A stretch of DNA of 64,000 bases from Escherichia coli (GCF_050920415.1 NZ_CP169309.1), one strand, 5' to 3'; positions 694-38,578 are shown, counted from the stretch's first letter. The notes: generated by a model not told the origin, from the letters alone. Program-made: numbers and translations.

Positions 694-749
694 GTTCTGC
701 GCTGTTAACGCGTAATTTACATTCAACGCCCCGTTTGCGGGGCTAATTT

Positions 750-860
750 CTTGTCGGAGTGCCTTAACTGGCTGAGACCGTTTATTCGGGATCCGCGGAA
801 CCTGATCAGGCTAATACCTGCGAAGGGAACAAGAGTTAATCTGCTATCGCATCGCCTTTG
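750..860 (+). promoter_or_regulatory. TPP (thi-box) riboswitch in the thiC leader
   Basis: Conserved thi-box core CTGAGA...ACCTGATCAGGCTAATACCTGCGAAGGGAA at about 770-830, immediately upstream of thiC. Confidence 0.8.
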
Positions 861-922: not shown

Positions 923-2820
<1,898 letters not shown>

Positions 2821-2821
<1 letters not shown>

Positions 2822-3456
2822 TGTATCAGCCTGATTTTCCTCACGTACCTTTTCGTTTAGGACTGTACCCGGTAGTGGACAGCGTACAGTGGATCGAACG
2901 TCTGTTGGATGCAGGCGTGCGTACTCTCCAGCTGCGCATCAAAGATCGGCGCGATGAAGAGGTGGAAGCCGATGTCGTAGCAGCAATTGCGCTGGGCCGC
3001 CGCTATAACGCACGGCTGTTTATCAACGATTACTGGCAGCTGGCGATTAAGCATCAGGCGTATGGCGTCCATTTGGGGCAGGAAGATTTGCAATCTACCG
3101 ATCTCAATGCCATCCGCGCGGCAGGCCTGCGGCTGGGCGTTTCGACACATGATGATATGGAGATCGACGTCGCGTTGGCAGCACGTCCTTCTTATATCGC
3201 GCTAGGACATGTGTTCCCGACGCAAACCAAACAGATGCCTTCTGCACCGCAGGGGCTGGAACAGCTGGCACGGCATGTTGAGCGCCTGGCGGATTATCCC
3301 ACCGTGGCGATTGGCGGTATCAGTCTGCCGCGCGCGCCTGCGGTGATAGCAACGGGTGTCGGCAGTATCGCCGTTGTCAGCGCCATTACTCAAGCCGCAG
3401 ACTGGCGTTTGGCAACAGCACAGTTGCTGGAAATTGCAGGAGTTGGCGATGAATGA
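2821..3456 (+). CDS. thiE: Thiamine-phosphate synthase ThiE, 211 aa
   Basis: ORF track 2818..3456; start moved to ATG 2821, which overlaps the thiC stop (TGATG) and gives the canonical MYQPDFP N-terminus. Confidence 0.9.
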
Positions 3457-4204
3457 CCGTGACTTTATGCGTTATAGCCGCCAAATCCTGCTCGACGATA
3501 TCGCTCTTGACGGGCAGCAAAAACTGCTCGACAGCCAGGTGCTGATTATCGGTCTGGGTGGGTTGGGTACACCTGCTGCGCTATACCTGGCGGGAGCTGG
3601 TGTCGGGACGCTGGTACTGGCAGATGACGACGATGTGCATTTGAGCAATCTGCAACGACAAATCCTCTTTACGACTGAAGATATCGATCGCCCGAAATCG
3701 CAGGTCAGCCAACAGCGACTGACACAGTTGAATCCCGACATTCAACTGACAGCATTACAACAACGGTTAACGGGTAAGGCGTTAAAAGATGCGGTAGCAC
3801 GGGCCGATGTGGTACTCGACTGTACCGACAACATGGCGACTCGCCAGGAGATTAATACCGCCTGCGTAGCACTTAACACACCGCTTATCATCGCCAGCGC
3901 GGTCGGATTTGGTGGTCAGTTGATGGTGCTGACACCGCCCTGGGAACAGGGGTGTTACCGCTGCCTGTGGCCGGATAACCAGGAGCCAGAACGCAACTGC
4001 CGCACGGCGGGCGTGGTTGGCCCGGTGGTCGGGGTCATGGGCACGTTACAGGCACTGGAAGCAATTAAGCTATTGAGTGGTATAGAGACCCCTGCGGGAT
4101 ATCTTCGACTGTTTGACGGTAAATTAAACCAATGGCGCAACCTGGCGTTGCGCCGTGCCAGCAGTTGCCCAGTATGCGGAGGAAGCAATGCAGATCCTGT
4201 TTAA
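3449..4204 (+). CDS. thiF: ThiS adenylyltransferase ThiF, 251 aa
   Basis: ORF track 3356..4204 is N-terminally extended; known ThiF begins [12 protein letters not shown] at ATG 3449, overlapping the thiE stop. Confidence 0.9.
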
Positions 4205-4388
4205 CGATCAACCGATGCAGTGCGTCGCCGGACTAACTGTTCACGAACTGCTGGAGCAACTCGATCAACAACAAGCAGGTGCGGCACTGGCAATTAATCA
4301 GCAAATCGTCCCGCGGGAGCAATGGGCGCAACATATCGTGCAGGATGGCGACCAGATCCTGCTTTTTCAGGTTATTGCAGGGGGTTGA
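4188..4388 (+). CDS. thiS: Sulfur carrier protein ThiS, 66 aa, C-terminal GG
   Basis: ORF track 4155..4388; start set to MQILFND; ubiquitin-like fold ending in GG. Confidence 0.88.
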
Positions 4389-4389
4389 G

Positions 4390-5160
4390 ATGTTACGTAT
4401 TGCGGGCAAAACGTTTGATTCACATCTGTTTACCGGCACCGGGAAATTCGCCTCTTCACAATTGATGGTGGAGGCGATCCGCGCTTCCGGCAGCCAACTG
4501 GTGACGCTGGCGATGAAACGTGTCGACTTGCGCCAACACAACGATGCTATCCTCGATCCACTTATCGCGGCGGGTGTGACACTACTGCCAAATACTTCTG
4601 GGGCGAAAACTGCGGAAGAAGCCATTTTCGCCGCTCATCTGGCACGTGAAGCGTTAGGCACAAACTGGCTAAAATTAGAGATTCACCCTGACGCCCGCTG
4701 GCTGTTGCCCGATCCCATCGAAACCCTGAAAGCCGCCGAAATGTTGGTGCAACAGGGATTTGTCGTGCTGCCTTACTGCGGTGCCGATCCAGTGTTGTGC
4801 AAACGTCTGGAGGAAGTGGGCTGTGCAGCAGTAATGCCGCTCGGCGCACCAATTGGCTCTAATCAGGGACTGGAAACCCGCGCCATGCTGGAGATTATTA
4901 TCCAGCAAGCCACGGTTCCGGTGGTCGTTGATGCTGGCATTGGCGTTCCCAGCCATGCCGCGCAGGCGCTTGAAATGGGAGCCGATGCGGTGTTAGTGAA
5001 TACGGCGATTGCCGTCGCGGACGATCCCGTCAACATGGCGAAGGCATTTCGTCTGGCGGTAGACGCCGGCCTGCTGGCACGTCAGTCCGGGCCGGGCAGT
5101 CGCAGTCATTTTGCTCATGCCACTAGCCCGCTGACCGGATTTCTGGAGGCATCGGCATGA
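4390..5160 (+). CDS. thiG: Thiazole synthase ThiG, 256 aa
   Basis: ORF track 4279..5160 is extended; known start [11 protein letters not shown] at 4390, one nt after the thiS stop. Confidence 0.92.
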
Positions 5161-6377: not shown

Positions 6378-6539
6378 TAGTACCGTCAGCAGGAATGTTG
6401 TCCAGGGCGAAAAGCTTCTTCCTCGTTTCGCCCTGCCTTTCTTAAAAATTCCGTAATGCAAAGTCTGAAGCCATCGCCTGTTGAGCAATGAAAGAGATCT
6501 GATTGTAAGAGAGTAAATACTCAACTATCATAGAGACGA

Positions 6540-6707
6540 AAATAAGAACACATGTTCTCATCTTCCAGGATGCAGCAGACTGAAGAAATTCAGACATCCC
6601 GCAACCTGCGATTATCGCAAGGTCAAGGCAAAGTCCGGTAATGGCGTTCTGAATACCAGAGATAATTCTCTGGCGAAACCCACCTTAAGGTGGGTTTTGT
6701 TATTTTG
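6540..6707 (+). ncRNA. Candidate small RNA in the thiH-yjaZ intergenic region (possibly SroH-like)
   Basis: About 400 nt ORF-free spacer; plus-strand hairpin AACCCACC-TTAA-GGTGGGTT followed by a T-rich tract at 6678-6707; recalled from memory that an sRNA is annotated at this locus in K-12; 5' end not determinable from sequence. Confidence 0.3.
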
Positions 6708-16025: not shown

Positions 16026-16060
16026 GCGCAAAAAGGCTGGTGACTAAAAAGTCACCAGCC
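16026..16060 (-). terminator. rplL-rpoB intergenic attenuator (partial terminator)
   Basis: Minus strand: GGCTGGTGACTTTTTAGTCACCAGCC followed by TTTTTGCG, about 40 nt after the rplL stop; matches the known L7/L12-beta attenuator position. Confidence 0.7.
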
Positions 16061-16099
16061 ATCAGCCTGATTTCTCAGGCTGCAACCGGAAGGGTTGGC

Positions 16100-28658: not shown

Positions 28659-30200
<1,542 letters not shown>

Positions 30201-30369: not shown

Positions 30370-30535
30370 CGCGGGGTGTGCATGATACGCTTTCCCGCTC
30401 CAGAGTCAAGCATTTTTTTGCTTTTCTCTGTCGAGATTCTCAGGAGAATCTCGCTGACCCGGCGGCGTGTTTGCCGTTGTTCCGTGTCAGTGGTGGCGCA
30501 TTATAGGGAGTTATTCCGGCCTGACAAGAGGAAAT
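30370..30535 (-). promoter_or_regulatory. rRNA operon tandem promoters P1 and P2
   Basis: Minus strand: P1 TTGTCAGG...TATAATGCGCCACCACTGACACGG (-35 at 30522-30527, -10 at 30500-30505); P2 about 120 nt downstream with TTGACT -35. Confidence 0.8.
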
Positions 30536-30572: not shown

Positions 30573-31430
30573 TCAGTCTAAAACTGCCAGTTTTTCGAGC
30601 GTTTCGAAGCCGTAGCGCTGTAAAACGGGCAATAATTGTTCAGCTTCTGGCGTCATTGCCATACAAAAGGCAATATTCGCATCGGCGGATTTTGCATCCG
30701 GGGCTTCATGTTCTAACAACCATGCCGTTCGGCGAGCAATCGCTGCGCCAGAATCCACCAGCCGTGTTCCCTCTGGCAGCACTTGTAACAGTTCTTCTTG
30801 TAGTAGAGGGAAGTGGGTACACCCCAGAACAACGGTATCTGGTGGCTCTTTCATTCTTAACCACGGGCGCAAGATACGCTTTAGTGCATCCAGAGAAACA
30901 TCTTCGCCATGCAGCTTCGCTTCAGCCAACTCAACCATCTCTGCCGAGCCCAGCATTTCTATCTGGCATTCATTAGCGAAACGCGCGATCAGCTCATGAG
31001 TATAAGAACGTTTAACTGTTCCGCGGGTTGCCAGTAATCCGACAATGCCATTAGCTGTCAGACGTGCCGCTGGCTTAATCGCCGGCACGACACCAACAAC
31101 CGGGAAGTCGAACTTTTCGCGTAATGCAGGAAGTGAAACGGTACTGGCGGTGTTGCAAGCGACCACTGCCAGCGCAAGGGGATAGCGTTCTTGCACTGCG
31201 GTGACAATTGCCACCACTCGCTCAACAATAAACTCTTCGCTTTTTTCGCCATACGGGAAAGCGACGTTATCGAAAGCATAAATGTAATGGAGATCCGGTA
31301 AGAGATGCCGGATCTCGTCATAGACCGACAACCCACCGACGCCGGAGTCAAACACCAGCACGGTGGGACGTGGTTCAGAAGGTGTAGCTGCCAGACAAGG
31401 TGTATTCCCGTCCTGCAGTTTGGTAGCCAT
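30573..31430 (-). CDS. murI: Glutamate racemase MurI, 285 aa
   Basis: ORF track 30573..31442; start set to MATKLQDGN; 5' end overlaps the btuB 3' end. Confidence 0.93.
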
Positions 31431-33219
31431 AGACTGTCTCATAATCTTTGTCGAACAGGTTGGCTATTTTACCACGAACTGTCAGGTGAGAGGTGACCGG
31501 ATACGCAACCGCAAGATCCCACAAGCTCACACCGCCCATTTTCACGGTTTGATACGGCCAGGAGGAGTAATCCTTATCATAGCGAGTGCCTAAATACTGA
31601 TAAGTAATACCCCAGTCGAAGTCATACAACTGCCAGTCGAGCTGGTATTTCACCTGCTGTTTAGCACGGCGTAACAACGGCGTGTCGGTAATTGCATTGT
31701 GCGCATCGACATAATCATAACTCACAGTATGCGTCAGTGGTCCGGTATCAAAATTGGCGATCGCCTCGACGCCCTTAATTCGCGCTTTCCCTTCGTTATA
31801 GTATTTCAGGGTGTGATCATCGTAATCGATCAAGTCACTGACATCGTTACGATATCCAGAAATACGCCAGTTCACCCCAGCGGTTAAGCCTTCAAACGCG
31901 CCTTCCCACTGTTTGCTTTTCTCAGGTTCCAGATTTGGATTTCCGTAGAAGCCATACAGTTGTCCAAGATTTGGTGCCTTATAAGATGTCCCGTAGGAAG
32001 CAATGAAGCGATAGCCTTCGATGAATTCCCAACCAGCGCTGGTTTGCCAGGTTCCATGACGACCAAACTGTGAGTTATCGTCGCTGCGTGCTGCGCCTTC
32101 AAAGGTAAAATCGCCGACTTGTTGCAGCCCGGTCAGATAGATGCCGGTATTACGTTGATCATATCCATCCTCAACATAACCTGTACCCGGCGTCGTAGTC
32201 TGTTTCTGCCAGTCGACACCCGCACCAATACTACCGTGACCAACGATGACATTGTTTGCCCACTGGACGGTGTATTGCTTCATCTCATCGAGCGTCGCCG
32301 ACGAATCATAACGACCATAATGCGGATCGTAGTTGTAATCTTTGCTATGGCTATAGCTGGTAATGAGTTGTGATTTAATCAGTTCGCCGTTATAGCGCAG
32401 CCCGGCGTCCCAACTTTGGCTATAGAGTTTACGGGTATCGAGCAACGGTGAGCCGGGAGAATAATATGCGTCATAATTGGTACGGTTATCATAGCCATAG
32501 CCGCGCACAAAACCGCTCCAGACATCAGTAAAGTTATGCTCCAGCGCGCCATAAAGCGTTTTACTTAAAAAACCATCGTTATCTGGCTGAGCTTGCGTTC
32601 CGGTATTACCATAGGCGACAACATCATAACCATGAGTATGGGCATAATCGCCCAACAGCGTTACCCGTGTCTTATCTCCCAGTTGTTGCTGTGTAGAAAC
32701 ATCATAGTTCTGATAGCTATTGCTTCCCCACCCTGCTGAAATTTCCGTTCCGGGTTGATCGCGCGTCGTGATGATATTCACGACCCCACCTATTGCATCG
32801 GAACCATAGACGGCGGAGCGCGGCCCACGGATATATTCAACACGCTGGACAAGCGCAATAGGGAACTGGCTAAGGTCGGCAGAACCACTCACCCCCGCCA
32901 GATTCAGGCGGACGCCATCAATTAATACCAGCACATGACTGGCATTTGTACCGCGAATAAAAATAGATGAGAGCTGACCTGAACCGCCGTTTTGGGTGAT
33001 ATCGACACCCGGAAGACGGCGCAGCACATCATTGACCGAGGTCGACTGCCAGCGGTCGATATCCTGACGCGTCACAACGGTGGTTGGTGCAAGCACAGTG
33101 CTGCGCGGCTGTTCAAAACGGTTAGCAGTAACGACGAGAGTATCCGGGCTGGTATCCTGTGCCCAAGCGGAAAAGGCTGTGACAGAACACGCCGTCAGCA
33201 GCGAAGCTTTTTTAATCAT
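31375..33219 (-). CDS. btuB: TonB-dependent vitamin B12 outer-membrane transporter BtuB, 614 aa
   Basis: ORF track 31375..33264; canonical start [20 protein letters not shown] (signal peptide); TonB box [10 protein letters not shown]-terminal ...SGSYTF. Confidence 0.95.
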
Positions 33220-33224
33220 TGTAA

Positions 33225-33460
33225 AGCATCCACAATAGAAGAAGGATGCCGCAGGCTTCATCAATATTACGCGATGATGAGAACCAGATGCGACGTTAGC
33301 CGGCAGGTCTTCGGGCTTGGAGGGGTATATAAAATACTAAGAGATGATGACTTCCCACCGGATGGCAGTGTCCGCATAACGCAATCATCGCACCTTTCCT
33401 TACCGCTGCGCGTCAGCTCCAGATTTGCACTGGATTCCCTATTAACTCACAGGACCGGCG
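33225..33460 (-). promoter_or_regulatory. Cobalamin (B12) riboswitch in the btuB leader
   Basis: Minus-strand leader GCCGGTCCTGTGAGTTAATAGGGAATCCAGTGCGAATCTGGAGCTGACGCGCAGCGGTAAGGAAAGGTGCGATGATTGCG... matches the known btuB B12 element. Confidence 0.8.
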
Positions 33461-33587
33461 AGTGGATGCTACAGGTTGTAACAAGTTGCTGTCCAGACGT
33501 AGCTCACAAATAGGAATACATCAAGATCTGGACATCTGATGAGCAATCCCTACAATCGCCGCGTACATTTCATTTTCAGGATACATC

Positions 33588-38464: not shown

Positions 38465-38578
38465 GAAACGGAGCGGCACCTCTTTTAACCCTTGAAGTCA
38501 CTGCCCGTTTCGAGAGTTTCTCAACTCGAATAACTAAAGCCAACGTGAACTTTTGCGGATCTCCAGGATCCGCTTTTT
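38465..38578 (+). ncRNA. oxyS: OxyS small regulatory RNA
   Basis: Sequence GAAACGGAGCGGCACCTCTTTTAACCCTTGAAGTCACTGCCCGTTTCGAGAGTTTCTCAACTCGAATAACTAAAGCCAACGTGAACTTTTGCGGATCTCCAGGATCCGCTTTTTTTT recognised, including the terminal hairpin and U-tract. Confidence 0.88.

Follow-up and report, generated by a model that had tools for sequence, protein, structure and literature searches.

A conserved candidate promoter inside btuB may supply the essential murI gene downstream of a B12 riboswitch in Enterobacterales

In the Escherichia coli sequence analysed here, a stretch of 64,000 nt referred to below as the window, the genes for the vitamin B12 receptor (btuB) and for glutamate racemase (murI) overlap on the minus strand. 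The murI reading frame starts with ATG at 31430..31428 (MATKLQ...) and ends at 30573, btuB stops with TGA at 31377..31375, and by their ORF coordinates the 3' end of btuB and the 5' end of murI share exactly 56 nt, which murI reads in the +1 frame relative to btuB. The coding features are:

31375..33219, minus strand: btuB coding sequence, 614 aa, TonB-dependent vitamin B12 receptor (ORF list, PGAP, NCBIfam NF007926)
30573..31430, minus strand: murI coding sequence, 285 aa, glutamate racemase, essential (NCBIfam NF002034, PDB 2JFN)
31375..31430, minus strand: dual-coding overlap; in btuB the last 18 codons and the stop, in murI (+1 frame) the first ~19 codons

Both products match their families well above threshold. 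BtuB is covered over residues 1-614 by the NCBIfam equivalogs NF007926 (1105.9 bits, cut-off 836) and TIGR01779 (901.8 bits, cut-off 599.7). MurI matches NF002034 (515.6 bits, cut-off 408; residues 24-283), a family tested also as TIGR00067, and is ~99% identical to PDB 2JFN, a protein of 285 aa that begins MATKLQ. The arrangement is a same-strand, out-of-frame overlap: two genuine coding sequences lie in different frames, and the start codon of the downstream gene is conserved. The 3.2-kb btuB-murI region is 100% identical to that of E. coli strain MFDS1022581, in which the PGAP annotation agrees with the window (locus L001: btuB 1882..3726, murI 3671..4528, 56-nt overlap) and gives the gene order trmA / cobalamin riboswitch / btuB / murI / 16S rRNA; the region is covered to at least 80% in 5,050 of 5,426 complete genomes. 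The btuB-murI pair of E. coli K-12 (b3966/b3967) is the same locus and agrees with the window in the 56-bp overlap, in the MurI start (MATKLQ, as in PDB 2JFN) and in the context of trmA, riboswitch-btuB-murI and rrn operon. The window comes from another strain and differs from K-12 in a few MurI substitutions and in an additional, non-conserved in-frame ATG at -12. The pair has been described as “well-characterized overlapping ORFs” of 56 bp, both of which are translated according to Ribo-seq (PMC8921622), and the absence of btuB from the Keio collection has been attributed to the overlap (bioRxiv 10.1101/2025.12.01.691526).

The extent of the overlap is a stable property of the locus. A single scan of a genome collection gave 80 Enterobacteriaceae species loci, or 81 with the window, and the overlap is exactly 56 nt long in 80 of these 81 sequences. 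The murI ATG is present in all 81, which demands that a BtuB tyrosine codon be TAT and not TAC. The first protein search returned close Enterobacteriaceae only; more distant lineages were reached through a search of 50%-identity representatives and another in which the Proteus protein served as query. In this way trmA-btuB-murI with a 56-nt overlap was found also in Proteus, Providencia, Xenorhabdus, Photorhabdus and two Serratia species, with MurI proteins of no more than ~66-70% identity, bringing the tally to 86 of the 87 Enterobacterales species loci examined. The sole exception, in Citrobacter amalonaticus AUH_CA_2023_1 (locus L071), shows an apparent frameshift in a G7 homopolymer, which is probably an error of long-read sequencing. 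Because the ATG, with its TAT tyrosine codon, and the 56-nt length are both conserved, the overlap is no accident of annotation. The arrangement is absent from the next-closest MurI homologs (45-53% identity), in which murI follows metF or argGH. Two other start codons were considered and rejected. The first is the additional ATG, 12 nt upstream of the murI start:

31440..31442, minus strand: alternative in-frame ATG, giving MRQSM-MATKLQ, 289 aa and a 68-nt overlap; not conserved

It results from a strain-level polymorphism (GATTAT vs GATTAC) and was seen in only 2 of the 81 loci, the window and one other (L004), the remaining 79 Enterobacteriaceae loci reading ACG. Since it is limited to two loci, MATKLQ is the conserved start of murI. 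The second, a GTG at -45, is in a frame closed by TAG in the window and in most species. The extra ATG does lie downstream of the -28 transcript start described below, so it could be used where it occurs.

In alignments, the two frames of the overlap differ in their rate of change. Read as BtuB, it encodes the final C-terminal beta-strand, which is well conserved. Read as MurI, it encodes about residues 1-20, which diverge much faster; Proteus reads MAIVRQDENTSSQEVTTSD, and E. coli differs. The glutamate racemase family models leave out MurI residues 1-23, their match running from residue 24 to 283; the other solved MurI homologs all align from residue 20-26 onward; and most of the 50%-identity cluster representatives also lack the residues encoded by the overlap. 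TraDIS shows that insertions are tolerated in this stretch of murI. The simplest reading is that the MurI N-terminus may be a lineage-specific extension, gained via a start codon inside btuB, and it is apparently dispensable. The case resembles N-terminal extension by overprinting, in which the start codon migrates upstream, in that MurI residues ~1-20 are outside the family models, the MurI frame is less conserved than the BtuB frame, and distant murI genes do not adjoin btuB; the direction and timing of the event are inferred.

At its other end, btuB carries the signals that make its own expression conditional on B12:

33285..33474, minus strand: cobalamin (AdoCbl) riboswitch aptamer in the btuB 5' leader (Rfam RF00174, PGAP feature)
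33466..33495, minus strand: btuB promoter-like site TGGACA-18-TAGCAT (consensus scan)
33010..33139, minus strand: region of AdoCbl-dependent Rho termination in K-12 (btuB +81..+210), mapped by position (PMC11162775)

The Rfam match (33474..33285) is full-length, over model positions 1-189, and scores 87 bits against a gathering score of 31.5. Judged from the promoter-like site, the riboswitch leader of ~240 nt begins at about 33460, and a G-to-T up-mutation has been described in the btuB -35 element (PMC10802341). According to published work, btuB is no longer translated once AdoCbl has bound, and Rho then ends transcription between +81 and +210 of the ORF (PMC11162775); in the window, C exceeds G in the composition of nucleotides 31-180 of the btuB ORF. 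An earlier ChIP study, conducted without added AdoCbl, saw no Rho effect at btuB (PMC5499598). RNA 3' ends have been mapped at -75 and +40 of btuB, with none further before rrsB (PMC7815308). Because of the AdoCbl- and Rho-dependent termination and these early 3' ends, transcripts from the btuB promoter are an unreliable supply of an essential enzyme. The same logic is known from other riboswitch units with Rho-dependent polarity (thiMD, ribB, lysC, mgtA), where, as at btuB, the ligand blocks translation initiation and exposes the RNA to Rho, and transcription of everything downstream is lowered. Unlike in those units, the distal gene here is functionally unrelated and essential, and is apparently insulated by a promoter of its own placed after the termination zone. 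Among the 11 papers examined that name both genes, none reports a measurement of murI expression with and without B12.

A preliminary description of this DNA had pointed to the 56-nt overlap, to the riboswitch upstream of btuB and to the arrangement being already known. These points are borne out, respectively, by the ORF coordinates and PGAP annotation, by the Rfam match, and by the literature (PMC8921622) together with PGAP. Its concern that B12-dependent attenuation of btuB could affect murI, unless murI has an internal promoter, is legitimate in view of the termination data (PMC11162775; PMC7815308).

The btuB sequence that precedes the murI start is constrained beyond what it encodes. We aligned 79 intact btuB genes by codon and scored codon identity among the sequences sharing the same amino acid. 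Across 310 windows, each 17 codons long, this score has a background of 0.47±0.054 and never exceeds 0.68. In the overlap itself it is 0.96, as dual coding predicts. The 17 codons directly upstream of it, which encode nothing else, score 0.88, or ~7 SD above background, and define the following feature:

31431..31481, minus strand: constrained block inside btuB, 51 nt with near-invariant synonymous sites; proposed murI promoter and 5' leader

From 31481 to 31431 the sequence is almost invariant per nucleotide, third codon positions included, and the block is retained in Morganellaceae and Yersiniaceae. Synonymous variation returns upstream of ~31483 and downstream of the btuB stop. Part of the block must be the ribosome-binding region of murI, which would be conserved even without a promoter.

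Within the block and its immediate surroundings we recognize these elements:

31466..31474, minus strand: extended -10 element TGgTAAAAT (TGnTAnAAT), -44..-36 from the murI ATG, in 87/87 loci
31458, minus strand: published murI 5' end, -28 from the ATG, K-12 position ~4,165,400 (PMC2760140, Table S1)
31437..31440, minus strand: weak Shine-Dalgarno-like GAGA, 7 nt upstream of the murI ATG, read from the sequence

The motif TGnTAnAAT is found at -44..-36 in every one of the 87 Enterobacterales loci, which represent three families, as TGGTAAAAT in 81, TGGTAGAAT in five and TGCTAAAAT in one. It varies solely at n and at hexamer position 3, both of which are tolerated in an extended -10 element. 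The BtuB residues written over the motif do change (RGK, RGR, RAK, CGR, HGK) while the motif stays, which places the constraint on the DNA and not on the protein. A single other match to TGnTAnAAT occurs in the 160 kb of btuB scanned. The 9-mer occurs in the window at chance frequency (5 observed vs 6.7 expected), so the evidence for a promoter is the conservation pattern and the position, not the motif alone. The candidate promoter has no recognisable -35, and a single-sequence sigma70 scan does not call the site; it does have the TG at -15/-14 and the hexamer T-12, A-11 and T-7 of extended -10 sigma70 promoters. Because synonymous variation resumes at ~31483, the start of the constrained block coincides with the expected start of an extended -10 promoter without a -35. 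In known promoters of this class the -35 is dispensable, and the murI site resembles them also in having a 5' end 8 nt downstream of the hexamer, its activity and -35 independence being predictions from sequence.

That 5' end is documented in a published transcription start survey (Mendoza-Vargas 2009; PMC2760140). Table S1 of that study lists murI -28 by HTPS 454 with a frequency of 2, a sigma70 -10 box tcgtGGTAAAATagcc (PATSER 4.9), “-10 ext (TG)” as yes, and the comment “New; upstream gene 1”; the box is the one in the conserved motif, and the K-12 position of the 5' end was derived from the coordinates of PMC7815308. From the sequence we had predicted a start at about -29 before this entry was found. 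As the -28 end consists of two reads from a 454 method without 5'-triphosphate selection, it could be a processing site. Another murI entry of that table is a 5' end within the gene, at +178 (~31252, minus strand; frequency 2, low-quality class 5), with the box tttcGATAACGTcgct and a -10 at about 31263..31270. Downstream of the -28 position, GAGAC is invariant in an alignment of 11 species, and the 28-nt leader and the murI start codon are unpaired in the centroid fold. Another promoter-like sequence inside btuB, TTATCA-16-TATGAT (31603..31576, minus strand; 9/12 matches, ~150 nt upstream of murI), was rejected as a murI promoter; the loop-coding stretch around it is poorly conserved (0.3-0.6 for amino acids) and its synonymous identity is at background level, so that the match is probably fortuitous. 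On the opposite strand of the constrained block, reading of the sequence and an Rfam scan gave no convincing antisense promoter or RNA family, and two further articles (PMC12164975, PMC8624392) contain no information on a native murI promoter.

The preliminary description had held that the regulatory consequences of the overlap are not obvious from sequence. This no longer applies once related genomes are compared, given the extended -10 element in all 87 loci. It had also named a strong independent promoter within btuB as the finding that would make the overlap regulatorily irrelevant. What we find comes close to this, namely an order-wide motif and a -28 end (PMC2760140), the latter from two reads without triphosphate selection, and the evidence as a whole largely answers the concern about attenuation.

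We consider it probable that murI has its own constitutive extended -10 promoter inside btuB, supplemented by conditional read-through from btuB, and that the overlap has little or no regulatory role. According to this explanation, murI would be transcribed by two routes. The first would be read-through from the btuB promoter, conditional on B12, OmrA/B and Rho; it would be lost when the AdoCbl-bound leader riboswitch blocks btuB translation and Rho ends the untranslated RNA early in btuB. The second would start from a constitutive sigma70 extended -10 promoter without a -35 (31474..31466), set within the btuB codons for ...VRGKI.... Transcription is predicted to begin at ~31458 and to give a 28-nt, largely unstructured leader with the weak GAGA, followed by the murI ATG at 31430. 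By this route, the supply of the essential glutamate racemase would depend neither on B12 nor on the sRNAs OmrA/B nor on translation of btuB. The 56-nt overlap would have little or no regulatory role; the BtuB C-terminal beta-strand would dictate its sequence and MurI would read it in +1. The present analysis itself shows the gene anatomy, its conservation throughout the order, the constraint on synonymous sites and the pattern of the motif; the literature supplies the 5' end at -28, the termination by Rho within btuB and the finding that btuB can be disrupted without loss of viability. The explanation would further have the -28 end be that of a primary transcript, and the promoter be B12-independent and alone sufficient for viability.

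The pair could instead be a single operon, in which murI depends on the btuB promoter, leaky read-through is enough, the constrained block is a translation-initiation region and the -28 end a processing product. We regard this as unlikely. The genes are indeed co-directional, with no terminator between them: no terminator-like site was found near the junction, the only two, at 31882 and 33203, lying inside btuB, in a number that does not exceed that in shuffled sequences. The literature, too, speaks of a btuB-murI operon, and promoter/RBS up-mutations raised the “btuB-murI transcript” ~300-fold, though the RT-qPCR in that study reports btuB (PMC10802341). A btuB transcript that is subject to AdoCbl-dependent Rho termination and ends early would, however, starve an essential gene, and on a long mRNA the ribosomes translating btuB would cross the murI start. 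The small read number of the -28 start and its detection without triphosphate selection fit a processing product, and a ribosome-binding region would be conserved anyway, but the conservation reaches -51, past the ribosome footprint, and ends exactly at the start of the extended -10, where the pattern of variation in TGnTAnAAT suits contacts of RNA polymerase and not a ribosome-binding site.

The viability of nonsense, deletion and insertion alleles of btuB also speaks against a single operon. In TraDIS, a densely hit, non-essential btuB adjoins an insertion-free murI, and cells survive the loss of the first ~1 kb of btuB. Insertions located within the overlap itself, past the candidate promoter, are tolerated mainly in one orientation, with a bias of ~10-fold. 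In Intestinirhabdus alba BIT-B35 (L041, 1712..3556), btuB has a nonsense change, CAA to TAA, at codon 392, followed by an intact 3' block and an intact murI. The change represents a natural null allele or else an assembly error; if real, it argues that murI needs no btuB translation. The insertion and deletion genetics are supportive, not decisive, because transposons and the kan cassette can supply outward transcription.

A functional coupling, by which the overlap would tie MurI synthesis to BtuB translation through opening or re-initiation, so that B12 would modulate the D-glutamate supply, is very improbable. The exact length of 56 nt kept across the order might be taken as its signature, yet a fixed length follows trivially when two conserved proteins share a sequence that does not tolerate indels. 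Translation of both ORFs in Ribo-seq is likewise compatible with coupling. The junction is not of the ATGA or TGATG stop/start type: the btuB stop lies ~53-56 nt downstream of the murI ATG, against 1-4 nt in termination-reinitiation, which rules out coupling of this classical kind. RNA structure around the murI start is not significant, either for 31500..31390 (z = -0.8) or for the short leader (z = -0.6), and coupling or occlusion based on structure was dropped for this reason. The nonsense allele and the viable btuB deletion speak against coupling as well, as do the poor conservation and the insertion tolerance of the MurI N-terminus. Finally, that the extra conservation has no regulatory content and reflects BtuB constraint (codon usage or folding of the last beta-strands), local recombination or low mutation is hardly credible: the BtuB C-terminal strands are highly conserved (amino-acid conservation 0.9-1.0), but the measure is conditional on identical amino acids and so reports synonymous sites, other BtuB segments with amino-acid conservation of 0.85-0.93 have synonymous identity at background (~0.45-0.55), and the motif is kept while amino acids change within it and the rare isoleucine codon ATA is used in the block.

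Upstream of the constrained block, btuB has a different pattern of variation. Between 31540 and 32000, several segments with very low amino-acid conservation (0.24-0.5) and indels alternate with conserved strands. As BtuB is a receptor for phages and colicins, these blocks fit surface loops that are subject to diversifying selection. In C. amalonaticus (L071, 1675..3560), BtuB is only 52% identical to that of E. coli over residues 1-580, and identity jumps to 85% in the last 55 codons, which comprise the promoter block and the overlap. This pattern suggests recombination between divergent btuB alleles, the boundary falling immediately before the murI signals.

One further possibility, to which we assign a low probability, is that the internal promoter insulates murI incompletely. 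MurI synthesis would then consist of a constitutive floor from murIp and read-through sensitive to B12, OmrA/B and Rho, or read-through would occlude murIp, or the embedded signals would shape btuB alleles. If read-through occludes murIp, B12 would raise murIp firing; with either mechanism, cobalamin availability would have a weak influence on the D-glutamate supplied to peptidoglycan across Enterobacterales. Under the same reading, a promoter, a leader and a second frame in ~107 nt would constrain the BtuB C-terminal strands, and a recombination boundary would be fixed for hypervariable btuB alleles, as in C. amalonaticus.

The region beyond murI contains the signals of the rRNA operon. A near-consensus promoter, TTGTCA-16-TATAAT (30527..30500, minus strand), begins 46 nt after the end of murI, and a second promoter-like site, TTGACT-16-TATCAT (30409..30382, minus strand), follows; both precede the 16S rRNA (30200..28659). 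No terminator-like site is predicted after murI. Because of this, and because no 3' end lies between btuB +40 and rrsB (PMC7815308), murI transcription may run into the rRNA operon promoters. Other Rfam matches in the window are a TPP riboswitch (745..845, plus strand), sroH (6538..6698, plus strand), “Pseudomonas sRNA P26” (16034..16095, minus strand, 74.5 bits) and OxyS (38465..38574, plus strand).

Internal promoters for an essential cell-envelope gene are familiar from the dcw cluster, in which ftsZ has promoters inside ddlB, ftsQ and ftsA. The likeness to murI is that the promoter lies within the preceding ORF, so that the essential distal gene does not depend solely on the operon promoter. 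The murI candidate differs from the ftsZ promoters in its position, within the final ~30 codons of a gene for an outer-membrane barrel, in being an extended -10 without a -35, and in being followed by an out-of-frame overlap.

In conclusion, the overlap, the riboswitch, the Rho-dependent polarity and the -28 start entry are all already in the literature. To these we add order-wide comparative support for an internal promoter and a constrained segment, 31375..31481; this is a refinement and no new kind of element. The locus explains why btuB resists clean deletion and why murI appears as an artefactual match in phage-receptor screens. When btuB is manipulated, at least its last ~110 nt (31375..31481), with promoter, leader and murI start, should be left intact. 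The model predicts that synonymous mutations in the -10 element make E. coli B12-sensitive or D-glutamate-dependent. More broadly, the locus would be an example of an essential gene placed behind a gene under riboswitch and Rho control, and probably insulated from it by a promoter written in the synonymous sites of its upstream neighbour.
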